Below, piece after piece: positions 2,441-49,044 of a stretch of 64,000 nt of DNA. Made by a program: the position numbers and the translations under genes. Within the stretch, counting starts at the first letter, position 1; each line of letters starts with the position of its first letter. Origin of the DNA: a bacterium (GTDB lineage: Bacteria; Electryoneota; JAOADG01); assembly GCA_963681965.1 (NCBI GenBank), contig OY820579.1:1344001-1408000 (forward strand). Reading direction: 5' to 3'. The notes under the pieces are model-generated. The model was given only the letters and a program-made list of their open reading frames with translations. It had not been told where the DNA came from and searched no databases.

Positions 2441-3823
2441 ATGAATGAATTGTTCCCCGATCTTCTACCTGAAATTCCCCGCGCTTTCGTTGAACCGGCA
2501 GTGGATGCTCCGCTAGCTGAACGGATGCGCCCTCGAACGTTGGATCAATTCGTCGGTCAGCAGCATTTGGTCGGTCCTAACGCGGTTATGCGAAAACTTA
2601 TTGCTCGTGGGAAACCGATTTCGCTGCTCTTTTGGGGTGATCCCGGGATCGGCAAAACCACATTGGCACGGTTGTTAGCCAACACCTTCGACCGGGAATT
2701 TGTCCAGATGTCCGCAGTTCAGGTGGGATTGTCCGAAGTACGGGCGGTAATTGCCCGGGCACGAGCGCTATCTGCCACGGGTCGGGGATTGGTTTTGTTC
2801 CTCGATGAAATACACCGCTTCAATAAAGCTCAGCAGGATGCCCTCCTACCGGCGGTAGAAGAGGGTTCGGTGGTATTAATCGGTGCAACGACCGAAAACC
2901 CCTCATTCGAAGTGATTGGCGCGCTTCTGTCCCGTTGCCGGATACTTCGGTTCTATCCCCTGAAAAAAGAAGATTTGGATCAATTACTTACTCGTGCTCT
3001 GGTGGAAGACACTGTTTTAAGCAAATGGTCGATTCAAATCGAACCGGAAGCCCGTGAAGCCCTGCTCGATTTGTCCGGTGGCGATGCCCGATCATTCTTG
3101 AATACGGTCGAATTGGCATTCGAATTATCAGCATCGGGAAAACCTGAAGCCAGTGAAGTGTTGATCGATCAAGCAGTTGTTGCGCAAGCAGCCTTGGAAC
3201 GAGCAGCTAAATATGACAAAGCAGGCGAGCAACACTACGATCTGATCAGCGCATTTATTAAATCGGTGCGGGGGAGCGATCCCGATGCCGCAATCTATTA
3301 CATGGCTCGGATGCTAGCAGGTGGGGAGGATCCGCTGTTTATTGCCCGACGGTTGATTGTACTTGCGAGTGAAGATATTGGCAACGCTCAACCGTTGGCA
3401 CTGCTTGTCGCTACCAATGCATTCGATGCCGTACACCGCATTGGCATGCCCGAAGCGCGCATCGTATTGGCACAAGCAGTTACCTATCTTGCTACTTGTC
3501 CCAAATCAAATGCTAGCTATATGGCAATTTCCGCAGCTCAAGCCGAAGTCGAAACTTCCGGCGACTTGCCCGTACCATTGCACCTGAGAAATGCACCCAC
3601 TTCATTGATGAAACAAATGGGGTACTCCGAAGGTTATAAATACGATCACGATTTTGGCGGTTTTTCCGGACAGCAGCATTTACCGGATGCAATTGCCGAT
3701 CGGGTTTTCTATCTTCCAAGGGCAATCGGTGCTGAAGCAAAAATCGCCGAGCGAATGCGCCAGCTTTGGACTGAACGGTATCCAAAAGATCAATCCAATC
3801 AACCGACAGAGGATGCGCAGTAA
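2441..3823 (+). CDS. rarA: Replication-associated recombination protein A (AAA+ ATPase)
   Basis: PLAERMRP, Walker [67 protein letters not shown] 2441 preferred over TTG 2405. Confidence 0.95.
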
Positions 3824-6711
3824 TGAATCATTTTGCCAAGACGCATCCTACTAAGATTTTTCAGAATCGCAGTTTTGAACTCTGGCTGATCGCTGTCATA
3901 ATTATCATCAATTGCTCGTTTGTTTTCGCCCAACCGAAAGTAATCAAAAACACTCTGGTAGCGAATCCCGATACCAGCAAAACACCTATCATAGTTGATT
4001 CCACCAAAGTGATCACACCGAAGATTTTTACGATTGTTTCCGATACTGCGAAAACAAAACCCGACTCACTTAAGGCCGATAGTCTCAAGAAAAAATCGGA
4101 TCTCGATACAACCGTGACCTATAGTGCCGATCGTATCGATTTGGATGCAAAAGAAAAAATTTCGATCCTCACCGGAAAAGCGATTGTTCGATACAAATTA
4201 ATGGAACTTCGGGCATACCGCATTCGAGTCGACTGGAAACGCGACATGGTGTATGCCGAAGGTCGACCGGATACGCTCTGGACCGACACGACGGCAACCA
4301 AAATCGACACTGTCGTGTTTGTCGATACTCCGCTCTTTCTCGATCGATCTTCCGCTTCGGATAGTCTCCGGGGTTTGACGATGGAAATGAATTTGAAAAC
4401 GCAACGCGGACGTGTCTTTACGGGTGCTTCGGCGAATAATCAGGGGCATTATCGCGGGGAAGTATTGAAGCGCATGGAACCGCAAGTGATGTATGTGAAG
4501 TCGGGTGACTTTACTTCTTGCGATCAGAATCCCCCGCATTTCCATTTTCACTCCACTGCAATGAAGATGGTCTATAAAGACAAGTTGATCGCTCGACCAG
4601 TCTACCTCTACTTTGGTGAAGTACCGGTCGCCGCGTTACCGTACGGTATTTTCTCGATGAAGCCGGGTCGGCATAGTGGTTTGGTTGTTCCTACTTATGG
4701 TGAATCGGCTTCCCGCGGTCGTTACTTCGAGCACCTCGGATATTATTGGGCACCTAGTGATTATTGGGATTCCAAAGTCACCATGAGTTACTATGAACAA
4801 GCCGGAACGCTCTGGCGTATAGACAACAACTATGCCGTGCGCTACAAACTGAATGGGTCGGTATACGGCAGCTACTCAAACTTGGATGGATTGTCACACT
4901 GGGATGCTCACTGGAGTCATGCCCAACCGATCGATCCTACCCTCTATGTCAGCGGTAATGTGAATTACGTGAGTGACGAATCATTCCGGAATTATTACTC
5001 CCAATCGCTGGATGAGCGGTTAAACCAGGAAGTTCAATCCAACCTAAGTTTGTCGAAAAACTGGGTCGATAGCCGTGCTTCACTCTCTGCCGGTTTCTCG
5101 GGACGTCAGAATATTCAAACTCGAAATTACGATATTACCTATCCCTCGCTCTCGTTTCGGTGGGGAACTGGACCGATCTTTCCCAAAGCCCGACGTGACG
5201 TCCTAGAGGGTTTTGGTGGACCTCCAAAGAAGTCGGAAACTGGCGAATCGCAAGGCATAGAAAGTAACGCTAACGAACCTAGTTTTTGGGAGACATTCAC
5301 TTACGATTACAACATGCAGTTAACCAATAGTGAAACGGGAGTTCTTCAACAAAATTTATATCGACCTGATTCGAGCTTGTACAATCACTGGGAGCGCGTC
5401 AAATCGCAGCGGGTGCTCCATACGTCGAATTGGAATGCTCCATTCAAAATGCTGAAATACTTCACGGTAAATCCCAATCTTCATATTTCTCACGATTGGG
5501 TGCCAGAATTAACGAAATACTCGATTGTCTCGGTCGATAGCAACCAAAATGCGATTCTCGACTCTACCAAAAACCGCGGCTTCTTTACCCGAACCACCTT
5601 TAATACCGGTATTGGTATCGGTACAAAGTTGTATGGATTTTTCGATCCCAAAGGATTATTGGGATTAACTGGCATTCGTCATGTGCTAACACCGGGGATT
5701 GGATTGAATTACACCCCGAACTTCGCCGATCGACAATTTGGTTATATGCAACGACTGACCAATCCTGCGACAGGTGAAGAAATTGTGAGGGATCCTTGGG
5801 TCAGATCGGGTGCTGGTGCAACCGGAAGAAATAAATCGGTGAATATGAGCCTGAATCTTGATAACATCTTTCAAGCACGGTACGAATCGGGTGACGAAAC
5901 CAAGAAAATCGACCTCTTTACTTGGAACCTCTCGACAAGTTGTAACTTGATGGCGGATTCATTGCAATGGGCGCCGATCAACATGAGTTGGCGTGCAACG
6001 CCATTTTCCGGTGGATCGGGATTGATTTCCAGTGTCGGTGTCGACATCAGTTCGACCTACAGTTTATACAAACACGATTATTACAACGAAACAGATCTGT
6101 ATGGTCACGAAGTAAATCAATATGTCTGGGATTTTCCCCATTCGTTGTCGCCATTCCGGTTTACCAATGGCTCGGCAAATCTTTCATTCCAGTGGCAGAA
6201 ACCCAAACCAAGCAATACCCCTTCGATACCAGATACGACCAAACTTCAACCGTCATCGGATCTTCCGCAATTGCCTAATCAACAACAACGGTATATCGAT
6301 CCCTACACTGGTGAAGATACCCGTGCTTTTGGCGATAGTCGATCAATGGTCGCAGCGCTGGAATCGAGTTGGAGTGGTTCGACCGGGTTACAGTTATCTA
6401 CCAATCGCAATAGTCCGCGAGTGATCACGAATGTTGCGACGCTGATTAGCTCGATTAGCCTCAGTATTACCCCAACATGGTCGATCAGTACCGGCGTGAA
6501 TTTCGATCTTGTTACGCACGAAGTAAATGCATCTAAGATCGTGACCCGGAAAGATTTACACTGTTGGGAAATCAATTTTGAATGGAACCCGCGCGGCGCA
6601 TCGCAGGGTTTCATGCTGCGAATTAATCCTAAGAGCACAGACCTACGCGATCTAAAACTGGAAAAGAAGCTTGGGTATAGCAGCTCCAGTGGTTCGCTCT
6701 TTGGCTGGTAA
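3823..6711 (+). CDS. lptD: Putative LPS-assembly outer-membrane protein, LptD family (FCB type)
   Basis: OstA-like N-domain (TVTYSADRI, FTSCD..PHFHF), RHSGLVVPTYGES..RG, large beta-barrel, C-terminal KDLHCWE motif. Confidence 0.8.
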   Translation: MNHFAKTHPTKIFQNRSFELWLIAVIIIINCSFVFAQPKVIKNTLVANPDTSKTPIIVDSTKVITPKIFTIVSDTAKTKPDSLKADSLKKKSDLDTTVTYSADRIDLDAKEKISILTGKAIVRYKLMELRAYRIRVDWKRDMVYAEGRPDTLWTDTTATKIDTVVFVDTPLFLDRSSASDSLRGLTMEMNLKTQRGRVFTGASANNQGHYRGEVLKRMEPQVMYVKSGDFTSCDQNPPHFHFHSTAMKMVYKDKLIARPVYLYFGEVPVAALPYGIFSMKPGRHSGLVVPTYGESASRGRYFEHLGYYWAPSDYWDSKVTMSYYEQAGTLWRIDNNYAVRYKLNGSVYGSYSNLDGLSHWDAHWSHAQPIDPTLYVSGNVNYVSDESFRNYYSQSLDERLNQEVQSNLSLSKNWVDSRASLSAGFSGRQNIQTRNYDITYPSLSFRWGTGPIFPKARRDVLEGFGGPPKKSETGESQGIESNANEPSFWETFTYDYNMQLTNSETGVLQQNLYRPDSSLYNHWERVKSQRVLHTSNWNAPFKMLKYFTVNPNLHISHDWVPELTKYSIVSVDSNQNAILDSTKNRGFFTRTTFNTGIGIGTKLYGFFDPKGLLGLTGIRHVLTPGIGLNYTPNFADRQFGYMQRLTNPATGEEIVRDPWVRSGAGATGRNKSVNMSLNLDNIFQARYESGDETKKIDLFTWNLSTSCNLMADSLQWAPINMSWRATPFSGGSGLISSVGVDISSTYSLYKHDYYNETDLYGHEVNQYVWDFPHSLSPFRFTNGSANLSFQWQKPKPSNTPSIPDTTKLQPSSDLPQLPNQQQRYIDPYTGEDTRAFGDSRSMVAALESSWSGSTGLQLSTNRNSPRVITNVATLISSISLSITPTWSISTGVNFDLVTHEVNASKIVTRKDLHCWEINFEWNPRGASQGFMLRINPKSTDLRDLKLEKKLGYSSSSGSLFGW

Positions 6712-6805
6712 TTCGAAATATTTTCGGGAATAACCACTTTTACCTTGATACCGCAGATTGGGTAGAGTAATTTGTTGGTTACGGATAAATTGAAAGGAGT
6801 TCACT

Positions 6806-7876
6806 TTGTCACACGATAAAACACTTCAATCGTACTTATCGGCAGAAGATCAATCCTTGCTTACTCACACTTGCCGTACGATTCCTAAAGAAATGATTTC
6901 GTTACCGGGATCGGATTATCTTGATCGTACCCTTGTCTATTCCGACCGCAATCCTCAAGTATTACGCAGTCTGAATCAACTCTTTTCCAACGGCAGATTG
7001 GCGAATACTGGCTATCTTTCGATCCTACCAGTAGACCAAGGGATTGAGCATTCCGGTGGCGCATCGTTTGCCCCCAATCCAATCTATTTCGATGGAAAAA
7101 ACATCGTTGAGTTGGCGATCGAAGGTGGTTGCAACGCCGTTGCTTCGACCTATGGTGTATTGGGAAGTGTCGCTCGTAAATTTGCGCACAAGATCCCCTT
7201 TATCGTAAAGATCAACCACAATGAACTATTGACCTATCCCAACAAGTTCGATCAGATTCTTTTTGGAACCATCGAAGAAGCTTGGAACATGGGAGCGGTT
7301 GCGGTTGGTGCAACGATTTATTTTGGTTCACCCGAGTCGGCACGGCAAATCGTGGAAGTCGCACAAGCCTTCCAAATGGCGCATCAACGAGGTATGGCAA
7401 CGGTGTTGTGGTGTTACCTTCGGAATAACGCATTCAAGACGGATAAAGATTATCATGTATCTGCCGATCTAACCGGTCAGGCAAACCATCTTGGTGTCAC
7501 GATCGAAGCCGATCTGATTAAGCAAAAGCTACCGGAAAACAACGGTGGATTTGCTGCGTTGAATATGGGTGACTCGAGCTACGGTAAATTCGACAAACGA
7601 ATCTATACCGAACTTGCCAGCGACAACCCGATCGATCTGACCCGGTACCAAGTAGCAAATTGTTATATGGGTCGCATCGGTTTAATCAATTCCGGTGGTC
7701 CTTCTGGCAAAAACGATTATGGTGAAGCCGTTAGAACCGCAATTATCAATAAGCGTGCCGGTGGAACGGGTCTGATTTCGGGTCGAAAAGCATTTCAGAA
7801 ACCGATGGCAGATGGCGTGAAGCTCTTGAATATTATTCAAGATGTTTATCTCTCGTCGGAAATCACGATCGCCTGA
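6806..7876 (+). CDS. fbaB: Class I fructose-bisphosphate aldolase (DhnA/FbaB type)
   Basis: [29 protein letters not shown] (Schiff-base Lys), [20 protein letters not shown]; TTG start preceded by AAAGGAG. Confidence 0.95.
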
Positions 7877-38599: not shown

Positions 38600-39295
38600 A
38601 TGCGCATGATACCTATCGCAGTCTTGTCTGCAACATTCCTGCTGGCAAGTATTGGTTGTGCAAAACAGGAGAAACCAGCAGTGAGTGATACATCGAAAGC
38701 CACACCGGAAGTGGCGCAAACTTCTAAGATTGACAAATCAAAGATCGAAGCTCCGGCAGATCAAATGCCGAAATCCGATGAAGTCGCAATTATCGACGTT
38801 CAGGGATTTGGTCGAATTGTACTTGGGTTCTTCCCTGAGAAGGCACCGAAACATGTCAAGAATTTCATCGATTTGGCGAAGCAGGGCTTCTTCGATGGTA
38901 CGACCTTCCATCGCGTGATTCCCGGCTTCATGATTCAGGGTGGCGATCCTAATAGCAAGGATGATGATCCTAATAACGACGGTATGGGCGGACCGAGCAC
39001 CCGCGTGAATGCCGAATTCACCGATCTGAAGCACCTTCCCGGTACTCTTTCGATGGCGCGCTCGCAGGATCCTAATAGCGCTGGTAGTCAATTCTTTATT
39101 TGCCACAAGGCAGCAGCATTCTTAAACGGTCAATATTCGGTTTTCGGACAGGTATTGGCGGGTATGGATGTTGTAGATAAAATCGCGAATGCACCACGCG
39201 GTGCAGCCGACAATCCTTATGCGATGAACTGCTCGAATCGTCAGAAAATCGCAATGAAAGTGACAATAGCTAAGTGGAGCGAAGTCATTCAGTAA
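38600..39295 (+). CDS. Cyclophilin-type peptidyl-prolyl isomerase, lipoprotein
   Basis: GGAGG plus ATG 38600; lipobox SIGC; APKHVKNF, FHRVIPGFMIQGGDP, SAGSQFFI. Confidence 0.9.
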   Translation: MRMIPIAVLSATFLLASIGCAKQEKPAVSDTSKATPEVAQTSKIDKSKIEAPADQMPKSDEVAIIDVQGFGRIVLGFFPEKAPKHVKNFIDLAKQGFFDGTTFHRVIPGFMIQGGDPNSKDDDPNNDGMGGPSTRVNAEFTDLKHLPGTLSMARSQDPNSAGSQFFICHKAAAFLNGQYSVFGQVLAGMDVVDKIANAPRGAADNPYAMNCSNRQKIAMKVTIAKWSEVIQ

Positions 39296-40107
39296 CACCT
39301 GCCGAACGGTCGCTCAGTCGCGCGGAAATTCGCGAACTGACGGCACTGGCAATCAAGAAATATCGGAACGAGCGCGGTCGTACAATTGCCGAAGGGGAGC
39401 AATTGGTGGCGGAAGCGCTCGTTTCGGCTTGGTCTGTACATGAAGTCGTAGCAACCCCACAATTTATTGCTAGTAAAGGGATGATCAAGCTCTTCCCGCT
39501 GATGGCTGAGCGTGAAGTCGCACTACGATCCGTTCCCGAAGAAGTGTTGAAGAAAGTCTCGGAGTTAGCTACATCGCCCGGTGTTCTAGCGACGGTCTCG
39601 CCTCCGGTATGGGGCGACAAACCGTTCCGAACTGGCGTAGTACTCGCGTTGGATCGCATTAGCGATCCGGTCAATCTTGGATCGATCGCTCGAACGGCTT
39701 GTTTCTATGGGATTGAGCGGCTATTATTGTCGGAGGAGTGTGTCGACGTACTCAATCCGCGTGCTTTACGAGCCTCGATGGGCGGTCTGTTTTTTCTTAC
39801 GATTCTGACGACGAAATCGTTGAAAAATGAATTACGAAAATTGCAGCATGACGGAGCCAAAATTGTTGTTGCCGATGCCGTAACCGGAACGGATGTACAA
39901 CTGAATCCATCAGAGCTACCAATGGTTTTGGTGATGGGTAGCGAAGCGCATGGAATTCGACCGGAAATTATTGAAATTGCCGATTACCACTGGCGATTAA
40001 ACCCGATCGGTCGGGATTTGACACTAAATGTCGCGGCTGCGACTGCCATTTTGCTGGATCGATTTTCCCGGATGACTGCTCGGAGTATCCCCAGGGATTT
40101 TTCATGA
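39274..40107 (+). CDS. TrmH/SpoU-family RNA methyltransferase
   Basis: AEGEQLV, LDRISDPVNLGSIART, RASMG, MGSEAHGI, LNVAAA. Confidence 0.9.
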   Translation: MERSHSVTPAERSLSRAEIRELTALAIKKYRNERGRTIAEGEQLVAEALVSAWSVHEVVATPQFIASKGMIKLFPLMAEREVALRSVPEEVLKKVSELATSPGVLATVSPPVWGDKPFRTGVVLALDRISDPVNLGSIARTACFYGIERLLLSEECVDVLNPRALRASMGGLFFLTILTTKSLKNELRKLQHDGAKIVVADAVTGTDVQLNPSELPMVLVMGSEAHGIRPEIIEIADYHWRLNPIGRDLTLNVAAATAILLDRFSRMTARSIPRDFS

Positions 40108-40940
40108 ATGATGCGCCGGATCGTCAGGAAGAAGAGAAAATCCCATACAGTCAATACCCGGAATTGTTTGAATCGACATGGGTGCTTATACTTACTTTGA
40201 TTTGGGGTGAATTGATGATTTGGGGATTGAAACAGCTCCCCATCAATGAACCTTTTTCACTCTGTCTGAGTACGGGTGGTTTGATCTTACCGGCACTAGT
40301 ATGGACGATGCGCAGTCGATTCACACTAAAATCGATTTTTCGGTTGCAATATCCCGGTTTTTATCATTTATTGCTTGCTATCCCATTCAGTATCGGGGTA
40401 TCGATCATTGTAGATGCTGTAGATCGATGGTGGTCCTTGTTGATTCCCCCCGATCCGGAATATGTTGCTGCTTTGTCCCGAAGTGTGACTGGTAATACCG
40501 TATACGAAGTAGTCGCGATTGTGATGGCTGCCGGATTTCTAGCACCACTTTTCGAAGAGATGCTCTTTCGCGGGTTGTTACAGGGAGTGATGGAGATTCG
40601 CACCTCCTTCTATTCCGCGATTCTATGGACAGCCGCAATATTCAGTGTTTTTCACGGTAATTTTTCGCTGCTACTGCCACTGATTCTGCTAGCGATCGTA
40701 TTGGGTGCAATGGTTTGGCGCGTCGATTCGATATTTCCAGCCGTCGTAGCACACAGTGTGAATAATCTCTTGATGCTGTATTCGATGAAGAAGCCGGATG
40801 GAGCGATATTTCCCGGTTATTTGGATGGACATCATGTCGCCCTGATTTGGTTGAGTGTCGCGATAGTATTAGCAGTAATTTCCGGTTATTTGTACTTCCG
40901 CTTTCCCGATGAAAATAGTCTTACGGAGACAACCGAATGA
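40104..40940 (+). CDS. CPBP (Abi/CAAX) intramembrane metalloprotease
   Basis: APLFEEMLFRG, FSVFH, AHSVNN. Confidence 0.9.
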   Translation: MNDAPDRQEEEKIPYSQYPELFESTWVLILTLIWGELMIWGLKQLPINEPFSLCLSTGGLILPALVWTMRSRFTLKSIFRLQYPGFYHLLLAIPFSIGVSIIVDAVDRWWSLLIPPDPEYVAALSRSVTGNTVYEVVAIVMAAGFLAPLFEEMLFRGLLQGVMEIRTSFYSAILWTAAIFSVFHGNFSLLLPLILLAIVLGAMVWRVDSIFPAVVAHSVNNLLMLYSMKKPDGAIFPGYLDGHHVALIWLSVAIVLAVISGYLYFRFPDENSLTETTE

Positions 40941-41182
40941 ATGCGCTTCCCTTCAAATTCAATCCTCAGCGCCACCGTCGATTGCTTCGATTAACGAAGA
41001 TCAGGCGTATCGCGATGATGATATATATCGTTTGTCTGTCATTCTTCGGTACAGCGGCTGTATTTACATTGATGGCCCCGAAAAGCTGGGATTGGGTATT
41101 GATCGGTGGAGCCTTGTCAATCTTGAGTGGTATGTTCTTCTATTATATCTCTTCAGAGCTGAAACGGGAACATGAACATTAA
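40937..41182 (+). CDS. Small two-TM hypothetical protein
   Basis: Overlaps both neighbours (ATGA coupling upstream); two hydrophobic helices. Confidence 0.6.
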   Translation: MNALPFKFNPQRHRRLLRLTKIRRIAMMIYIVCLSFFGTAAVFTLMAPKSWDWVLIGGALSILSGMFFYYISSELKREHEH

Positions 41183-42656
41183 AGTTTCGGTATTGCGAAA
41201 TCAATCGGAAATCGTACTTCGCTGCAATTCCGGCGAATACGAATTGTGCTGGAACGATCAATCGGCGCGGTTGACACTTGGTGCCGAACGCAAACTGACT
41301 TGTTCCTCAGTCATTCGAACACCTTGGTGTCGTCGCACCTATTTGGGTGATCATCCGATACCAGATAGTTTCCCGGTTGGTGTCATTGGTAAGAGTGAGA
41401 ATGGAATTGTCAGCTCGCGTCGGTGGTTGTGTTTGGAGACAACCGACCAAATCGAGAGTACCGATCCGTTATATACTCAAGCTTGTGCGATTGCGAATTC
41501 CGAAGCTACCGACGCGATCCTATCCTATCGGGATGAACGACCCAAGAGCGAAGATTTCATCACAATGGATTGGCAGAAAATTTCCACTCCCGTAGTATTT
41601 CGACCCCTTACTGACGATGCAACAATCGAGATTAAAAAAGTGCGAGTCGGTATCGGGTTTCATTGGGATACCTCACGCGATTTACTATATCGCGGAGAAA
41701 TTTCCATTCACCTTCTCGCTGATGGTTTGTGTGCAGTTATTTCGACCCCTCTGGAAGAGTATCTTGCAGTAGTGAATAGTTCTGAAATGCCCGCCGACTT
41801 ACCCCTCGAATTCTTGAAAGCGCAGACCGTTGCTGCGCGGAGTTGGTTACTGGCAAATTTGGGAACTCACCATCCCGGTGCTCCGTTCGATGTATGTTCG
41901 GATGATCACTGTCAGTGTTATCATGGTGCAATTAAGATAAAAGAGCACAGTTTACAAGCGGCGCGGGAAACCGAAAGTGAAATATTGGTGACACGAGATA
42001 CTGCTGACAACCGACGTATAACCGACGCGCGCTATGCGAAAACATGTGGGGGACGGTTTGAACCGGGTAATCGAATCTGGGGTGGAGAAACCCCTGGATT
42101 GCTCTATTCCCACGATCATTCCGATTTATCTCAAAAATCTCCGATTGCCTCGGAAACCGAAGCTTCATCAGTGATTTTGGACGAATCGATACCCGATTAC
42201 TGTAACCCAAAAAGGTTTCCCTATCCCGCATCATTAGCGTATTGTGAACCATTTTACCGCTGGCGTAAAGAACATTCTAATGCTCAAATTGCCGAATGGA
42301 TTAAACGATCGACTGGAATTGAAGTAGGTTTCATCCACGCGATTGAACCACTGAGACGTGGACCATCCGGACGATTACACCATCTCCAAGTGGCAGGTCA
42401 TCTGGCAACGGTTGAATTAAAGGGTGAATTGGCAATCCGTCGGGCGTTATCCGATTCTCATCTTCCCTCTTCCGCATTTGTGGTCGAAATTGTTGCCGAT
42501 CGAATTGTTATAGCGGGCGCGGGATGGGGACACGGAGCCGGTTTGTGTCAGACCGGAGCAGCCGTACGAGCTGGTTTGGGACAGGATTATCGAACAATTC
42601 TGTCGGCGTATTACCCGGATTCGCAAGTCGAAAAAGTACTTCAGGTAGAGCGATGA
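41172..42656 (+). CDS. SpoIID/LytB-domain protein
   Basis: LEEYLAVVNSSEM, LKAQTVAARS, DVCSDDHCQCYHG, RGPSGR, GAGWGHGAGLCQTGA, ILSAYYP. Confidence 0.9.
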   Translation: MNIKVSVLRNQSEIVLRCNSGEYELCWNDQSARLTLGAERKLTCSSVIRTPWCRRTYLGDHPIPDSFPVGVIGKSENGIVSSRRWLCLETTDQIESTDPLYTQACAIANSEATDAILSYRDERPKSEDFITMDWQKISTPVVFRPLTDDATIEIKKVRVGIGFHWDTSRDLLYRGEISIHLLADGLCAVISTPLEEYLAVVNSSEMPADLPLEFLKAQTVAARSWLLANLGTHHPGAPFDVCSDDHCQCYHGAIKIKEHSLQAARETESEILVTRDTADNRRITDARYAKTCGGRFEPGNRIWGGETPGLLYSHDHSDLSQKSPIASETEASSVILDESIPDYCNPKRFPYPASLAYCEPFYRWRKEHSNAQIAEWIKRSTGIEVGFIHAIEPLRRGPSGRLHHLQVAGHLATVELKGELAIRRALSDSHLPSSAFVVEIVADRIVIAGAGWGHGAGLCQTGAAVRAGLGQDYRTILSAYYPDSQVEKVLQVER

Positions 42657-44167
42657 ACATTCCCGACGACAAACCTTTACCGCAGCTCTCGTCGTCAAAA
42701 GTCGAGCGGTTAGAGAAGTATCGCCGCTGGAATACCAGTTGGCTGGGGCGTGTCGATAGTTATTTGATTACTGCGATTGTTGCGTCGATCATGGGTTTGT
42801 TCATGCGATTGTTTCAACGGACAAGAGTGTATCATCGCGAACGCTTAGATTTTGTAAAACTTCCCACGATGCTGTTGCCAAATCATGTTTCGATTGCTGA
42901 CGATTTCTTCTTGTGCCCTCCGATATTTTATTGGCGAAGCATCTTCCGCTATGGCTGGATGCCGTATCATGCCCCGGAGGAAAAGAATTTTTTCAAGGGT
43001 AAAATTCTCAGTTACATGATGCGGAAATTAAAATGTGTACCGCTAACGCGTGGTGCCGGATTTATGCAGCCAGGGCTAGTGCGATTGATGGAATTAGCGC
43101 ATACCGATAATATGCTGTGGATGTATCCCGAAGGCGGTCGCACCCGAACTGGCGATATCAACCGTGGAAAAGCCGGTGTGGGCATGATTTTGTATCGGAC
43201 GCACGCCCAAGCCATTCCGATTTATCACACCGGTCTGCACGAAGTACTTCCAATCGGATCCAGGTTTCCTAAGTTGTATAAGAAAATCGATATCATCGTC
43301 GGCAATCCGATCGATTTTGAGGATTTGTTTCTTCTCCCGGATGAACCGAAAACCTGGCAAGCGATTGCTGATCGAATTACGATTAAACTCTCCGAGTTAC
43401 GCGATGAATTGGATGAAATTCTCGGAGTGAAAAAAAATCTGATTTCTGATTCGAGTGTCGACGATACCGTTGGAGAACAAAGAAATAGTGGAAGAATACC
43501 AATCCCGTTAATAAAGAATATTGCTCCACGGGTTCGCTGGTACGACCTGAAATGGCAATCGACGCTTGCTAACTATCTGACGGTGCTGCGATTAATTCTG
43601 GTGCCGGTATTTGTTTACTTATTCCTCTCGGAAAATTTGTTTACCCAGATTTCGGCGACATTAGTTTTTATTTTTGCCGCGATCACCGATGCAATTGATG
43701 GATACGTGGCTCGGAAACGCAATGAGGTTACCAATTTTGGTACTTTTGCCGATCCACTGGCAGACAAGCTCTTGACAATTACCACTTTTTTTCTGATTGC
43801 ATTTCGAAAAGAATTCTCGGCATTTTTCCTGAATCTTTTCGTGTTTATCTCTTTGATTGCTACACGTGAAATTGGAATTACGATGTTGCGAATTTGGGCA
43901 ATCGATCAAGGGGTACCGGTCAAAACATCGGTGTGGGGTAAAGCGAAAACCGGAATTCAACTCGGAACATTGATTGGAACACTGCTCTATTTTAATGTGC
44001 GCGATATCCTCGAAAAATACGGAATCGAAGTAGAGTATTTAAACGATAAAACGATGGTTCCGGTATTGCACGGTTTGTTTTTCCTTTGCCTTGTGATCAC
44101 GATAATTTCGGGTTTTCTTTATCTCAGGAACCTCTCCTTTCAGAAAAAGAAAAGAAACGATCAATAG
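42653..44167 (+). CDS. Fusion: tafazzin-like LPLAT acyltransferase + CDP-alcohol phosphatidyltransferase (PgsA / CMP-forming cardiolipin synthase family)
   Basis: ATG 42653 overlaps the SpoIID stop (ATGA). N-domain NHVSIADD, YPEGGRT; C-domain ANYLTVLR, DAIDGYVAR-x7-FGTFADPLADK, REIGIT.LR, GKAKT..Q; continuous frame. Confidence 0.85.
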   Translation: MNIPDDKPLPQLSSSKVERLEKYRRWNTSWLGRVDSYLITAIVASIMGLFMRLFQRTRVYHRERLDFVKLPTMLLPNHVSIADDFFLCPPIFYWRSIFRYGWMPYHAPEEKNFFKGKILSYMMRKLKCVPLTRGAGFMQPGLVRLMELAHTDNMLWMYPEGGRTRTGDINRGKAGVGMILYRTHAQAIPIYHTGLHEVLPIGSRFPKLYKKIDIIVGNPIDFEDLFLLPDEPKTWQAIADRITIKLSELRDELDEILGVKKNLISDSSVDDTVGEQRNSGRIPIPLIKNIAPRVRWYDLKWQSTLANYLTVLRLILVPVFVYLFLSENLFTQISATLVFIFAAITDAIDGYVARKRNEVTNFGTFADPLADKLLTITTFFLIAFRKEFSAFFLNLFVFISLIATREIGITMLRIWAIDQGVPVKTSVWGKAKTGIQLGTLIGTLLYFNVRDILEKYGIEVEYLNDKTMVPVLHGLFFLCLVITIISGFLYLRNLSFQKKKRNDQ

Positions 44168-44485
44168 AATTTTATTATTAATTTTACGGTTTGTTGATTT
44201 TTACTAACAATCTTGATAATTGACAATATAAAACATGTTTAACTACTGATAGAATGTTAATTATTCTTGCACTCCATCCGTTACTTCATCTTGCTCCTTA
44301 CTTAAATATTCTTTAATGAGGATTGCAATCCCCTGCTGCTACACACTATACAAAAAGTAAGTAAAAATTTATTGAAGATTTACACTGATCAAATGATGAA
44401 TATCATTTTGTCAGTTATCTTTGTAACGATCCTAGTCGCTGATTATTCCTTGGAAACGATACCGATAACTGGCTCTAATTCTCAT

Positions 44486-44800: not shown

Positions 44801-46048
44801 ATGTCAATGATTGGTAACAGTATCCAATCCTGTCGAATCGTTAACGCACTAATCGTGATCTTGATTGTTGCGATCGGTGTGGGAACCATTCAGGCATCCA
44901 CTGGCATAAAAACCTATGGATATTTTTCGGTCAATTATGAGGATGTCGGGAAGCTACCTGATAAAACGAATAGTCCCGGTGAGTTTACCTATCCTCATCT
45001 AAATCTTATGTTTCAAGCGACTTCGGGGAATAATTTTCGAACATACGTCAACTTATCGGGTGATGATGCTGATGTCATCAATGTGAGAAATTACTGGGGT
45101 GAGTACGTTTACCGCGATTATTTAAAGTTCCGCGCGGGTAAGATCTATCGTCCCTTCGATCTATTCAACGAAAAACTCGACGCAGTACCAACATACCTTG
45201 GTATTGAACCTCCGGAATTGTTTGATAAAGATCATTTACTGCTTCCTCGAACCGATAACTTTCTCGTTCACGGAAACATCCCGCTATCGGGTAACATGTT
45301 GAAATATGCCGTAATGACCGGGAATTCTGAAATCGTATCCAACTCGCGACCGGTCTCATGGGATTTGAATTATAACGTTGAAAATTATCTGATCGGTACT
45401 TCCGGATATTATTCCAACGAAAAAGATGGTCCGGTGATGGGAGTTGGTGAAGGATCCCCTAATGGTGGTATTCTTCCTTGGATGGCAAGTGATAAATATT
45501 CTGTCTTGGGTGGCTATGCGCAAGCGAAGTTTGGTGGTCTATTAGTCCAAGGTGCATATTGGACAGCCAAGCACAATGCCGTTCGTGATCCAGCGAAAGT
45601 CTTGTCGATCAATCGCGGTAGATTGAACCAGCGTCAATTGGAACGATTCGGTCTGGATGTTGCTTCGCCAACGACCGCCGATGTCAAGACAGAAGCAAAA
45701 TATGATATCAATACGTATTACATTCGCTTCGGCTATACTCTACCCGAAGGTTTCATTCCCGGTGTGACTTGGGAATTGACACCGTTCTTGTTCCTCGATT
45801 ATTACAGCAATCCGGAGACGATCGCGAAGAAGTCGGATGGCGGCGATAACGAAGCTGGTGTGTCGGACGATGGTAAATTTACCAAGCCGACCATCGGTAT
45901 TGCTATTCGTCCCAATTCAAGCGTTGCGTTGAAAATCGACGCTAGTACGCATCAATATAAATGGACCGATCCAGCAGATGTTGCAGCCGGTTCGAAAAAT
46001 GTCCATTATGAAGAAATCCGCTTCGATCTATCTTTCTTCTTCGAATAA
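44801..46048 (+). CDS. Outer-membrane porin-like beta-barrel protein
   Basis: GGAGG RBS, signal peptide, TYGYFSVNY first strand, LKFRAGKIYRPFDLFNE, terminal strand IRFDLSFFFE. Confidence 0.7.
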   Translation: MSMIGNSIQSCRIVNALIVILIVAIGVGTIQASTGIKTYGYFSVNYEDVGKLPDKTNSPGEFTYPHLNLMFQATSGNNFRTYVNLSGDDADVINVRNYWGEYVYRDYLKFRAGKIYRPFDLFNEKLDAVPTYLGIEPPELFDKDHLLLPRTDNFLVHGNIPLSGNMLKYAVMTGNSEIVSNSRPVSWDLNYNVENYLIGTSGYYSNEKDGPVMGVGEGSPNGGILPWMASDKYSVLGGYAQAKFGGLLVQGAYWTAKHNAVRDPAKVLSINRGRLNQRQLERFGLDVASPTTADVKTEAKYDINTYYIRFGYTLPEGFIPGVTWELTPFLFLDYYSNPETIAKKSDGGDNEAGVSDDGKFTKPTIGIAIRPNSSVALKIDASTHQYKWTDPADVAAGSKNVHYEEIRFDLSFFFE

Positions 46049-46068: not shown

Positions 46069-46506
46069 ATGAAAATGTATCGGTTTATCGGTTGTTTATT
46101 GTTGGTGGCAGTGCTGTCAATGGCTGCTTTCGGTCAAACTGTGATCATCGTGAATAGTGCCAATCCAGTTAAGGCTGCAACTCGCGCAGAAATTGCCAAT
46201 TTCTATCTTGGCAAGACCACACAATGGAGCGATGGAACGAAAGCAGTGCCGATCGATCAAAAGAAATCGTCACAAGCTGGAGCTATGTTTCTCGAGAAAA
46301 TCGTCAAAATGAAAGAAAGCGATTTCAAGAAAACATGGGTCGAGAAGATGTTATCGGGCGAAGCCGAACCATTGCAGGTGAAAGGTTCTGACGACGAAGT
46401 TGTCGAATTTGTAAAAGCGAATACCGGTGCGATCGGGTATATCAGCGCAAAGTCGGTTGCAGATGGTGTTAAAGTCTTGCCAATCGACGGCAAAAAAGAG
46501 TGGTAA
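46069..46506 (+). CDS. Small single-domain PstS/PBP-like periplasmic protein
   Basis: Signal peptide; VIIVNSANP, FYLGKTTQWSDG, EVVEFVKANTGAIGYI. Confidence 0.8.
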   Translation: MKMYRFIGCLLLVAVLSMAAFGQTVIIVNSANPVKAATRAEIANFYLGKTTQWSDGTKAVPIDQKKSSQAGAMFLEKIVKMKESDFKKTWVEKMLSGEAEPLQVKGSDDEVVEFVKANTGAIGYISAKSVADGVKVLPIDGKKEW

Positions 46507-46602: not shown

Positions 46603-49044
46603 ATGATCCAGGAAAATTCGAAACTCTTTTCCATCAAGGGAAAATTGATTGTATTGATGACAACCTTCACCTTGTTGATCTCTACTTTCACATTTTTTTA
46701 TTTTCCTGCCAAGCAGAAAACGGTTCTTGAGCAGGAAAATCAAGCACGAATTAGCACTGTAACCGAAATGGTTGCATTGGGTGCTGGCATTGGACTTGGA
46801 ACGGATCAGCTGATCGTCGTCAAGAATGTTTTCGATTGGGCGAAACTGGACAGCAATTTGAAATATATCGCGGTACTGGATAAGTCCGGTGATAAAATTT
46901 CTCAATTCCCCAAAGATCTTCAATTGGATATTGCAGCACTGAAAAATGCTGGTGATATCTCACGCGATAACGGCATCATTCGCGTCGTTAAAGAAATCAA
47001 GTACAATAATCAAATGATCGGTACCGTTCTGCTGGGTGCCGATTTGTCCGCGTTAAACAATGAACTATCGAGAACGCGTGTCGCTGCTGCGATCGTCAGC
47101 TTAGTTATCCTAATCTTTGGTGTCATCGTATCCACACTATTGGGCGGATATTTTAGTAAGCGGCTCGGCAAATTGGTATCTCTAGCCGACGCAGTTAAAT
47201 CGGGTGACTATTCGACTCGTTTGGACGATTCTGGACAAGACGAGATCAAATTACTCGGCAATTCCATGCTGGAAATGAGCACTGTACTGCAATCCAAGGA
47301 ACAAGAAGTCAATTCCGCTTTGAATGAAGCCAATGAAGCAAAGGAACGCGCAATGTCGGCACTGCTCGATTCCGAGGCGAAAGCCGCTTCGTTGAATGAG
47401 ATGGGTCGGGAATTGCAGGAGAAGCAAAGTGAAATCGCCGGTGCATTGGAAGAAGCAAATGTTGCGAAAGAAAGAGCTGTTGTGGCACTACGCGATTCCG
47501 AAGCAAAGGCGACATCGTTAAATGAAATGAGTCGTACTCTGCAAGGTAAACAAGATGAAATTGCTTTTGCCCTCAAAGATGCCGAAGTCAAAGTTTCATA
47601 TTTAAACACGATCCCTGCACCGATCATGACGATGGACACCGAGTTGAATCTGGTATTTATGAACAAATGTGCATTGGATGCCGCTGGTACGACAATCGAT
47701 GTCATTAAAGGACGAAAGTGTTTCGACTTTTTTAAGAATCCACACTGCAACACCGATCAGTGTTGTTCGATGAGAGCAATCCGAGATCAAAAAGTTCATT
47801 CCAGTGAAACAACTGTGACAGCATGGGGAAAACAAGTTCCGATTATGTACACCAGCGCGTCACTTACCGATCATAACGGCAATGTCACAGGCGCATTAGA
47901 GTACATTAGCGATATTTCCAATATTCGCAAGGTTGTCGACGAGGTTAGTACTGTCGCGGCACGGTTGCAAAAAGGCAGCTTAAAGGATCGAGTCTACGTC
48001 GAAGGAGCTGAAGGTGATTACAAACGCCTAATCGATAGTTTTAATTCCGCGATCGACAATATTCTTAAGCCGATCGATGAGACGATTTCGTGTTTGAAAC
48101 ACCTTGCCGAGGGCAATCTAACTGTTCGCATTACCGGTGACTATTCCGGCGACCATGCTGCGCTCAAGGAAGCATTGAATTCTACGCTCGAGCAATTGAA
48201 CGAGCTATTGATCGAGATCAACGTTACAGTCGATCAGGTAACAACGGGTGCAGAGCAGGTTAGTTCTGCAAGTCAGTCCCTTTCGCATGGGGCAAATGAA
48301 CAAGCGAGTTCGCTCGAGGAAATCTCGTCGGCGATGACTGAAATTGGTGCCCAAACGAATCAAAATGCTTCGAACGCCACCTTTGCCAATAAGCTTTCCG
48401 ATGAAACCAAAGAAAAAGCCGAGTTGGGCAATAAACACATGAATCAGATGTTGAAGGCGATGAATGATATCAATGAATCGTCCTCGCAGGTTTCGAAGAT
48501 TATTAAGGTGATCGATGAAATCGCATTCCAGACTAATCTCCTCGCGTTGAATGCCGCCGTTGAAGCTGCCCGTGCCGGTGAGCACGGCAAAGGCTTTGCC
48601 GTTGTCGCAGAAGAAGTTCGAAGTCTGGCACAACGGAGTGCGAAAGCTGCGAAAGAGACTTCGGAGCTGATTGAAGGATCGAAGAGCCGTGTCGATAACG
48701 GAACTAAAATTGCCCAACAAACCGCGAAAGCGCTTGAGGAAATTGCGTCTGGTGTACGGAAAGTATCCGACTTGATTAACAATATCAACTCCGCTTCCAG
48801 CGAACAGGCTGCCGGATTTGCTACGGTCAATACCGCCTTGTCGACTGTCGATCAAGTCACGCAGTCGAATTCCGCAATTGCCGAAGAAAGTGCCTCGTCA
48901 TCGGAAGAATTGACTAGTCAGGCGTTGCATGTACGCGACTTGATCTCGCGATTCAAAGTGAGCGACAGCGATGGATCCAATCGACCGATGCGTACCCGAT
49001 CAATTTCCGCATCGACTAATCGCGGGTTAAGAAGGTTCTCATAA
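46603..49044 (+). CDS. Methyl-accepting chemotaxis protein (2 TM, periplasmic sensor, HAMP, coiled-coil repeats, PAS, HAMP, MCP signal domain)
   Basis: [44 protein letters not shown]; HAMP DEIKLLG; [12 protein letters not shown]...FMN. Confidence 0.95.
47272..47592 (+). repeat. Intragenic tandem repeat, 126-bp (42-aa) unit, about 2.5 copies
   Basis: Units start at 47272, 47398 and 47524: [12 protein letters not shown]...[10 protein letters not shown] / [12 protein letters not shown]...[10 protein letters not shown] / [12 protein letters not shown]. Confidence 0.85.

Follow-up and report, generated by a model that had tools for sequence, protein, structure and literature searches.

The window, as we call the whole stretch of DNA analysed here, is 64,000 nucleotides of contig OY820579.1 (assembly GCA_963681965.1, positions 1,344,001 to 1,408,000 of the forward strand) from a bacterium of the phylum Electryoneota. 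It contains a gene that joins an acyltransferase related to tafazzin to a PgsA domain in a single protein. A preliminary description, made from the letters alone, had recognized one open reading frame (ORF) with an N-terminal lysophospholipid acyltransferase (LPLAT) domain and a C-terminal cytidine diphosphate (CDP)-alcohol phosphatidyltransferase domain, and both domains score over their Pfam cut-offs: residues 69-191 match PF01553 (Acyltransferase; E 2.4e-13, 50.5 bits vs a cut-off of 23), and residues 304-446 match PF01066 (CDP-OH_P_transf; E 1.2e-36, 126.8 bits vs 22). In the ORF list and its translation, the frame is open on the plus strand from 42524 to 44167, and a start at 42653 gives 504 amino acids. 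This ATG overlaps the TGA stop of the upstream SpoIID gene (ATGA), and the N terminus starts at the same place in the closest relative, which is 67% identical. A scan for promoters and terminators returned nothing over chance. The gene and its parts are:

42653..44167, plus strand: the whole fused gene, 504 codons and a stop (ORF list, translation, both Pfam domains, and a frame common to the related genomes G001 and G003)

42692..42814, plus strand: a pair of N-terminal helices at residues 14-26 and 30-54, of which the second is hydrophobic (AlphaFold2 secondary structure)

42818..43423, plus strand: acyltransferase core of the LPLAT/AGPAT fold, residues 56-257 (PF01553, structure matches, trees)

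42881..42904, plus strand: NHVSIADD, the catalytic HX4D motif (H78, D83) and then D84 (aligns to H76, D81 and D82 of the Yarrowia tafazzin chain 7zkq_T)

43037..43075, plus strand: VPLTRGAGFMQPG, a Gly-rich loop and Gln139 (aligns to T129, R130, the Gly-rich loop and Q138 of 7zkq_T)

43124..43153, plus strand: YPEGGRTRTG, the PEG(T/G)R block common to LPLATs (E160, G161, R163 and R165 invariant)

43214..43258, plus strand: IPIYHTGLHEVLPIG, a block with a His two residues before a Gly (common to tafazzins, absent in PlsC rows)

43424..43552, plus strand: linker, residues 258-300, variable in sequence and length (model confidence, identity between relatives)

43553..44164, plus strand: PgsA domain (CDP-diacylglycerol--glycerol-3-phosphate 3-phosphatidyltransferase) with six predicted membrane helices (TIGR00560, match to Staphylococcus aureus PgsA, AlphaFold2 helices)

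43688..43768, plus strand: DAIDGYVAR...GTFADPLADK, residues 346-372, the CDP-alcohol phosphotransferase signature (D..DG..AR...G...D...D) ending in K372

The motifs that the preliminary description had quoted from the ORF are all present, namely NHVSIADD at residues 77-84, VPLTRGAGFMQPG at 129-141, GKAGVG at 172-177 and IPIYHTGLHEVLPIG at 188-202. An AlphaFold2 model of the fused protein, made from a 34-row alignment, contains two confident domains, with a mean predicted local distance difference test score (pLDDT) of 88.6 and a predicted template modelling score of 0.58. Between them lies a linker that is modelled as disordered (pLDDT below 50 at residues 268-289). Among fused relatives, residues 256-300 are only 13-16% identical and differ in length, compared with 70-73% identity in both domains. 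A complex prediction for the separated halves scored 0.00 against a mark of 0.32, a value that weighs neither way on binding. A hydrophobic stretch covers residues 36-55, and by analogy with PlsC and tafazzin the N-terminal helices are the presumed membrane anchor of the acyltransferase domain.

The fusion is real. That the fused frame might be a sequencing or assembly artefact was named at the outset as something that would undo the finding, and the chance of it is now negligible. The genome assembly is a single closed contig of 4,244,867 bases, 99.91% complete. The same fused frame occurs in two related genomes, at 67% identity in G001 of the same genus and at 66% in G003 of another. In addition, 10 contigs from four sources carry the fused protein cluster P0002, and run contigs from two studies, possibly the source data themselves, cover 42600-44200 without any difference or gap. 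Moreover, the fused forms hold 30-45 extra linker codons, so no single insertion or deletion could have produced the fused frame.

The fusion is also young and confined to one order of four species genomes. Three of these carry the fused gene (G000, G001 and G003), and the fourth (G002) has two separate genes that share an ATGA stop/start overlap at the place of the linker. We searched 41 genomes of the phylum for N-domain orthologues and for the C-domain. Of these, 33 have an N-domain orthologue (37-68% identity), and none was found in the eight genomes of family f6; related public records include Caldithrix abyssi and metagenome-assembled genomes (MAGs) of Calditrichaeota (38-43% identity). 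Outside the order, the acyltransferase is a separate gene of about 250-290 codons, and where it shares a contig with a C-domain match the two lie at least 150 kb apart. A search for the same architecture in a collection of 5.8 billion proteins found only three clusters, P0001-P0003, all with both domains; this search relies on shared words and can miss distant fusions. We found no report of an acyltransferase-PgsA fusion in the literature. Altogether, pgsA moved next to the acyltransferase gene in the ancestor of the order, stayed there in all four genomes and was fused to it later.

Does the fusion imply that the two activities are coupled? The preliminary description had argued so, treating the protein as a Rosetta-stone fusion. 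That argument is weak, because the fusion occurs in one order only and arose from two overlapping neighbours. Two counts weigh against coupling: a C-domain match adjoins the acyltransferase in none of the 29 other phylum genomes that encode one, and a PgsA-like sequence adjoins an N-domain relative in only 3 of 91 loci, all from this order. The fusion could thus be an accident of gene order in which each half does its own unrelated job, a possibility that we take seriously but consider to fall short of likely. It would account for these counts, for the two overlapping genes kept by G002, for the unconserved, disordered linker and for the presence of only three clusters with both domains in so large a collection. 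It fits less well with the persistence of pgsA beside the acyltransferase gene throughout the order and with a fused form that persists across two genera at about 66% identity. Moreover, because both halves work on glycerophospholipids at the same side of the membrane, co-location is at least plausible.

Both families have other fusion partners. In a search with the whole protein, 21 of the 33 matches (one named from Slackia) join PgsA to a CinA-like PF02464 domain, and single matches each join PgsA to radical-SAM, phosphoenolpyruvate (PEP)-utilising or BCCT-type domains (all among proteins P0006-P0029); PgsA is a frequent fusion partner. Among 25 scanned relatives of the acyltransferase, the partners were cytidylate kinase, short-chain dehydrogenase and carrier-protein domains, and none was PF01066. 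The proteins concerned are P0175, P0190, P0191, P0125 and P0149, comprising three cytidylate kinase-PlsC fusions, one fusion to a short-chain dehydrogenase and one to a carrier-protein domain. The cytidylate kinase-PlsC fusions match the gene order beside the PlsC gene of the genome studied here.

The N-domain belongs to the LPLAT/AGPAT fold, as its PF01553 score, its HX4D and PEGxR blocks and its structural matches (Z 19-21) all indicate. Judged by its sequence, it is not the ordinary, housekeeping PlsC, which the genome encodes elsewhere. The genome has two PF01553 genes only, the fusion and one of 216 amino acids. On the PlsC/AGPAT model TIGR00530 (cut-off 102.95) the N-domain scores 25.1 bits, similar to a Salix tafazzin (32.1), whereas the PlsC of the genome scores 76.4; the N-domain is thus below the cut-off, and it falls in a separate clade. 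The best NCBIfam match of the N-domain is the Aas-type model NF006386, at 36 bits against a cut-off of 1221, a model that the genome's PlsC and the tafazzins match equally well or better. As there are only two PF01553 genes, the genome has no Aas-type enzyme.

How close is the N-domain to tafazzin? For this comparison we used tafazzins returned by the searches rather than the human strings that the preliminary description had given. A HMMER search of 1.84 billion representatives with the N-domain gave 3809 matches at E<=0.001, 378 of them at <=1e-10. The best 150 of the 3809 include named tafazzins or monolysocardiolipin acyltransferases from Salix, Nyssa, Physcomitrium, Marchantia, Plasmodiophora and Capsaspora, together with close look-alikes of named tafazzins from a green alga and a fungus. 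Identity between the N-domain and tafazzins is 24-29%. By BLASTP, the Salix tafazzin matches over 245 amino acids with 100 bits (E 7e-29, 26% identity), compared with 40 bits over 81 amino acids (E 7e-9) for the genome's PlsC. Names in databases vary: for cluster P0046, which is 39% identical to the N-domain, JGI names one member 'monolysocardiolipin acyltransferase', whereas NCBI calls the cluster PlsC. The ESM Atlas returned only bacterial 'Acyltransferase' clusters (Delongiibacteriota, Gemmatimonadota and Myxococcota).

The trees place the N-domain family with the tafazzin clade and apart from canonical PlsC. All of them draw their rows from the best 150 matches to this query, which favours relatives of the N-domain, and so tafazzin may have closer bacterial kin that the sample does not contain. 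In a FastTree of 148 rows, a 64-row clade (support 94) holds both the tafazzin clade (34 rows, 100) and the N-domain family (21 rows, 93). A quick IQ-TREE run under LG+C20 with 87 rows recovers a 51-row clade (SH-aLRT 93) made up of the tafazzin clade (23 rows, 99), the N-domain family (19 rows, 88) and a few other bacterial rows, with nine canonical PlsC rows apart (99). Under LG+F+G4 with 41 rows, the N-domain family forms a clade of its own (88.7/92), and its sister is the tafazzin clade (88.1/92). A FastTree of 63 rows, to which named loci were added, supports the family (0.954), the eukaryotes (0.945), the eukaryotes with a bacterial group (0.996) and all three together (0.885). In the two trees made under the C20 mixture model (87 and 41 rows) the PlsC rows form a separate clade with support of 99-100, and forcing the N-domain family into canonical PlsC is rejected, marginally, by the approximately unbiased (AU) test (p 0.038, 41 rows, LG+F+G4). 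The N-domain family lies outside the tafazzin clade proper, which consists of the eukaryotes and the bacterial group (99-100), as its sister or near neighbour. Structure agrees in part. The best match of the model is Yarrowia tafazzin 7zkq_T (Z 21.4, root-mean-square deviation (rmsd) 3.3, 234 residues), followed by Thermotoga maritima PlsC 5kym_A (Z 19.1, rmsd 3.4, 205 residues); Foldseek E-values do not separate PlsC from tafazzin (1.5e-5 vs 4.9e-5).

Several results blur the likeness to tafazzin. With the same 41 rows, a quick run under the C20 mixture model turns the N-domain family, the tafazzin clade and a third bacterial group into a three-way fork within a clade of support 92, and the AU test does not reject a grouping of the family with other bacterial acyltransferases (p 0.076). 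The family profile scores PlsC 5kym at 44.4 bits (positions 36-249) and Yarrowia tafazzin at 31.1, and the latter match falls mostly within residues 70-154. When the single protein was used to search PDB sequences, no acyltransferase chain appeared at E up to 1; only the family profile found one. With our own hidden Markov models (HMMs), whose tafazzin and PlsC training sets were both picked from matches to this query, the N-domain scores 150.8 bits on eukaryotic tafazzin and 143.2 on PlsC. The preliminary claim that the N-domain resembles tafazzin more than PlsC is thus borne out by BLASTP and by the trees, while the profile scores are nearly equal.

These scores leave room for an N-domain that is a second lysophosphatidic acid (LPA) acyltransferase, a PlsC paralogue with another acyl-chain preference that feeds the phosphatidic acid pool for phosphatidylglycerol (PG). 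The N-domain has PEGxR and HX4D as in ordinary LPLATs, the family profile matches PlsC 5kym over nearly its full length, our PlsC HMM scores the N-domain almost as high as the tafazzin HMM does, and NCBI names its relatives '1-acyl-sn-glycerol-3-phosphate acyltransferase'. Many bacteria also carry several PlsC paralogues. We nevertheless consider this reading unlikely. The TIGR00530 score resembles that of tafazzins and not that of the genome's PlsC, the trees and the AU test set the N-domain away from canonical PlsC, and a PlsC-PgsA fusion would not join consecutive steps, because CdsA acts between the two.

The motifs provide a finer view. Conservation was taken from 19 family members, motifs were compared in a 15-row alignment that includes five PlsC rows, and Yarrowia residues were mapped onto the N-domain through an alignment with 7zkq_T. 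N77, H78 and D83 are invariant, and D84 occurs in 90% or more of the 19 family members where the PlsC rows have D-P. P130, R133, G134, G136 and Q139 are invariant in 19/19, in a loop two residues shorter than that of tafazzin. P189, Y191 and G194 are invariant, and H192 occurs in 90% or more. Four features are common to the N-domain family and tafazzins and absent in the five PlsC rows: the second Asp, a longer loop after HX4D, the RGxGxxQxG loop and the His before Gly.

What these residues do in tafazzin is described in the accessible part of a 2026 preprint on the Yarrowia enzyme, which reports bound acyl-coenzyme A (acyl-CoA) and lists the residues that hold it (10.64898/2026.02.05.703992). 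As far as that excerpt goes, the Gly-rich loop and a strictly conserved Gln138 bind the CoA diphosphate, Asp82 pairs with Arg101 of the extra loop, Trp205 stacks on the CoA adenine, Phe119/Phe120 sit at the bend of the acyl pocket, and bound CoA is proposed to shuttle acyl chains between lipids (10.64898/2026.02.05.703992). In the N-domain, His76 and Asp81 are kept as H78 and D83, Asp82 as D84, Thr129 and Arg130 as T132 and R133, Gln138 as Q139 and the basic residue at 204 as K173. The Gly-rich loop 132-136, which the PlsC rows lack together with the Gln, is also kept, as G134-G136 and two residues shorter. Six of the 13 mapped positions are lost: Pro83 is F85, Arg101 is P104 although the extra loop is present, Phe119 and Phe120 are M122 and M123, Tyr202 is R171, and Trp205 is A174. 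The plant tafazzins returned by the searches also lack Trp205 and have Arg instead. These losses affect the bent acyl pocket and the contact with the CoA adenine; they make a bound-CoA mechanism doubtful. The N-domain therefore appears to belong to a bacterial sister family close to tafazzin and is not a tafazzin in the strict sense, but a relative only.

A second bacterial group lies closer to tafazzin. Four bacterial rows fall inside the tafazzin clade (proteins P0131, P0135, P0143 and P0171). The first has an identical counterpart on a 38.6-kb contig from a MAG titled Proteobacteria, and the other three are 45-57% identical to genes of that MAG or of MAGs titled Myxococcales and Myxococcota. 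In the 63-row tree, 12 bacterial rows group together with support 1.0, and the seven eukaryotic rows are their sister (0.996). The titles of its members are Myxococcales, Bradymonadia and Myxococcota, along with MAGs labelled Pseudomonadota, Pseudomonadales, Chloroflexota and Dehalococcoidia; the loci come from public MAG records (L029, L030, L031, L032, L033, L035, L037 and L038). In the alignment, the group carries the Asp-Asp-Pro and Arg-Trp of tafazzin, and our own HMMs score it at 175-186 bits for tafazzin and 76-84 for PlsC. A literature search on bacterial and myxobacterial tafazzin found no paper on this group. The available part of a 2012 survey mentions only very weak bacterial look-alikes of tafazzin, which were left out of its final trees (PMC3378450). 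By their positions in our trees, the N-domain family and this second group bracket the origin of tafazzin.

One of these loci has an arrangement of its own. The Myxococcota MAG locus L030:3071-6926 has two tafazzin-like genes in tandem (3983-4738 and 5213-6106), with a 4HBT thioesterase (3071-3757) on one side and an alpha/beta-hydrolase (6051-6926), encoded on the other strand, on the far side. Such a gene set could form a cycle of deacylation and reacylation.

The C-terminal half reads as PgsA. It passes the cut-off of the PgsA model TIGR00560 (118.6 bits vs 109.1), and it matches S. aureus PgsA 7drj both by sequence (E 2e-14) and by structure (Z 18.5, rmsd 2.7, 173 residues, 32% identity). 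Like the acyltransferase half, it has its catalytic motif intact: D346, D349, G350, A353, R354, G363, D367, D371 and K372 do not vary among 18 PgsA of this type. In the accessible part of the structural work on S. aureus PgsA, K83, R110, R118 and K137 surround the 3'-phosphate of the product, phosphatidylglycerol phosphate (PGP) (PMC8640168). A HMMER alignment maps these residues to K372, R405, R413 and K432, which are invariant in 18/18 PgsA of this type from the phylum. That all four of these basic residues are kept argues for PgsA over cardiolipin synthase. The same excerpt describes PgsA and eukaryotic cardiolipin synthase as close relatives and the human enzyme as keeping most of the pocket residues (PMC8640168), so that these residues tip the balance towards PgsA but are also compatible with a synthase. 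Three genes of the genome carry PF01066: the fusion, PssA (126.9 bits on TIGR00473), beside which lies a likely psd as judged from its ORF, and a PgsA-like paralogue of 217 amino acids that scores 99.7 bits on the PgsA model, below the cut-off. CdsA and PgpA are encoded elsewhere in the genome, and the route to PG is thus complete with the fusion gene as the synthase.

Could the C-domain instead be a eukaryote-type (CDP-alcohol) cardiolipin synthase, or feed one, with an N-domain that remodels cardiolipin as tafazzin does? TIGR04265, the model for the phospholipase D (PLD)-type cardiolipin synthase, finds nothing in this closed, 99.91% complete genome, so any cardiolipin would need an enzyme of the CDP-alcohol type. 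The closeness of PgsA to the eukaryotic synthase, with mostly the same pocket residues in the available text (PMC8640168), also speaks for this idea. However, the C-domain is over the PgsA cut-off, keeps the four basic residues and reaches only 61.3 of the 240 bits required by the ClsA model NF053678. Moreover, without the fusion gene the PgsA that the cell requires could only be the paralogue, which has a lower score and is missing two of the four residues. Across the phylum, TIGR04265 exceeds its cut-off in only 3 of the 41 genomes, all of family f3, compared with 33 of 41 for the acyltransferase; the two do not travel together. We therefore consider a role in cardiolipin remodelling very unlikely. 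The preliminary assignment of the C-domain to a PG/cardiolipin-synthase family holds for its PgsA part, and nothing points to cardiolipin synthase; a comparison with bacterial cardiolipin synthase, which had been proposed as a check, came out in favour of PgsA. The sole PLDc_2 match in the genome (L018) was considered as a cardiolipin synthase and rejected, as it heads a 1061-amino-acid frame with helicase domains and is a nuclease-helicase.

The PgsA-like paralogue lies outside the window. It has Gly and Thr/Ser in place of the phosphate-binding Arg118 and Lys137. Its start is overlapped by the gene for a UbiA-family prenyltransferase of 346 amino acids with weak matches to chlorophyll synthase and archaeal GGGP-type transferases; the two genes together take up L002:389-2076 of the same genome (C1, about 1736485-1738172), and CdsA is about 5 kb upstream of them. 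Paralogues of this type are found in 37 of the 41 phylum genomes. The paralogue may use an uncharged alcohol acceptor, and a CDP-alcohol-type cardiolipin synthase is one candidate for its identity.

What might the fused protein do? We think it somewhat probable that it is a bifunctional membrane enzyme of phospholipid metabolism, formed by the recent fusion of two neighbouring genes, in which the N-domain is likeliest a re-acylator of lysophospholipids. The C-terminal six-helix half would join CDP-diacylglycerol and glycerol-3-phosphate to form PGP at the cytoplasmic face of the membrane, as suggested by its family assignment and by the solved S. aureus enzyme. The N-domain would be a monotopic acyltransferase, anchored at the same face by its two N-terminal helices, that re-acylates lysophospholipids such as lyso-PG or lyso-phosphatidylethanolamine with an acyl group carried by CoA. 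The donor could be free acyl-CoA, or a bound CoA could shuttle acyl chains between lipids. Three points suggest a CoA-linked re-acylation of lysolipids: PlsC is encoded elsewhere, the kin of the N-domain re-acylate lysolipids, and the loop that binds the CoA diphosphate is kept. We thus infer the substrates and the acyl donor from family and motif. A point against the assignment is that our literature search found no activity data for any member of the bacterial family to which the N-domain belongs.

Bacteria with two membranes make lysophospholipids during lipoprotein maturation and need to re-acylate them. Since the genome has no Aas-type enzyme, this would be a plausible housekeeping job for the N-domain family. 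The flexible linker would only tether the two halves, ensuring equal amounts and a shared location, and would thereby place lysolipid repair beside PG synthesis. Any such benefit is, again, a matter of inference, and the tether may equally be a neutral accident, because the linker is unconserved and disordered and the two genes are not linked elsewhere in the phylum.

A further possibility, already raised in the preliminary description, is that the N-domain transfers the acyl group to the head group of what PgsA makes, which would give acyl-PG or a similar lipid. In the genome itself, only the physical link to PgsA suggests this. In mycobacteria, a CDP-alcohol transferase gene adjoins that of an acyltransferase that acylates the head group of the product. 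However, all members of the fold family characterised to our knowledge acylate the glycerol backbone hydroxyls of glycerol-3-phosphate or lysolipids, and the standalone acyltransferase is kept across the phylum without linkage to PgsA. We regard head-group acylation as more improbable still than cardiolipin remodelling.

The genes around the fusion are of other kinds. Upstream lie:

39274-40107, plus strand: SpoU methylase (ORF list, Pfam)

40104-40940, plus strand: Rce1/CAAX-like protease (ORF list, Pfam)

40937-41182, plus strand: membrane protein of 81 amino acids (ORF list)

41172..42656, plus strand: gene with a SpoIID domain, immediately upstream; its stop overlaps the start codon of the fusion (Pfam PF08486)

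These four genes and the fusion overlap end to end, and judging from the overlaps alone, the three genes upstream of SpoIID probably share one transcript with the fusion. Across the phylum, the string of SpoU methylase, CAAX-like protease, small membrane protein, SpoIID and acyltransferase is kept (loci L007-L023), so that SpoIID, a cell-wall gene type, travels with a lipid acyltransferase gene. Of 33 loci, 11 have SpoIID immediately before the acyltransferase (L007-L011, L013-L017 and L021), all of these from the phylum, and a CAAX-like gene is upstream in four (L019 and L021-L023). In other genomes a TatD gene lies downstream. The constant neighbours of the acyltransferase are thus SpoIID, CAAX-like and TatD genes and not lipid genes, which argues that pgsA moved in behind an old gene cluster and was then fused. 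It also weighs against a joint lipid function: together with the lack of C-domain linkage in the 29 other genomes, it means that the fusion may say little about function.

Downstream, a gap of 630 bases separates the fusion from an ORF of 415 amino acids (44801-46048, plus strand) with a hydrophobic N terminus and no Pfam match. The G+C content in the region of this ORF is 0.40, lower than in the neighbouring 2-kb windows. It is followed by a PBP-like protein of 145 amino acids (46069-46506) and a methyl-accepting chemotaxis protein of 813 amino acids with PAS and HAMP domains (46603-49044).

Why would such a protein matter? Tafazzin is a disease enzyme, linked to Barth syndrome, and the well-supported bacterial sister group, together with a second related family, makes its origin testable. 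Small bacterial proteins also become available for studying the newly proposed CoA-mediated mechanism of tafazzin. Finally, the fused genes of G000, G001 and G003 and the split genes of G002 amount to a natural experiment on whether it makes a difference to tether a remodelling enzyme to a synthase. A bolder proposal is that bacteria hold the ancestral stock of tafazzin, that the fused enzyme is a CoA-mediated, transacylating remodeller of fresh PG, and that the PgsA-like paralogue is the missing CDP-alcohol-type cardiolipin synthase. We consider this combination improbable. On this reading, the bacterial group that is sister to the eukaryotic tafazzins has the N-domain family as the next branch out, and this lineage would have wired remodelling directly to PG synthesis by the same logic that mitochondria apply to cardiolipin.

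Both halves of the protein belong to well-known enzyme families, and what is new is the combination of domains, which has a narrow distribution and does not amount to a new kind of system. The C-domain resembles PgsA, as solved in S. aureus (7drj/7drk), in passing the TIGR00560 cut-off, in its signature and in its four phosphate-binding basic residues; the fused protein differs from PgsA by a 300-residue N-terminal extension made up of the acyltransferase and the linker. The N-domain shares with tafazzin (7zkq_T) the fold, HX4D with the second Asp, the longer loop, the Gly-rich loop with its Gln and the basic residue at 204. Unlike tafazzin, it lies outside the tafazzin clade, has lost six residues, is bacterial and is fused to PgsA. 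With T. maritima PlsC (5kym) it has in common the fold (Z 19.1), the HX4D and PEGxR blocks and two N-terminal helices, whereas the PlsC rows have none of the four features that the N-domain family shares with tafazzins: a second Asp, an extra loop, the Gly-rich loop with its Gln, and a His ahead of Gly. A further parallel is Escherichia coli Aas, a 2-acylglycerophosphoethanolamine acyltransferase fused to an acyl-acyl carrier protein synthetase. In Aas, too, a PF01553 domain is part of a fusion protein, and it re-acylates lysophospholipids as we propose for the N-domain, but its fusion partner is a different one, and the N-domain scores far below the cut-off of the Aas-type model NF006386.

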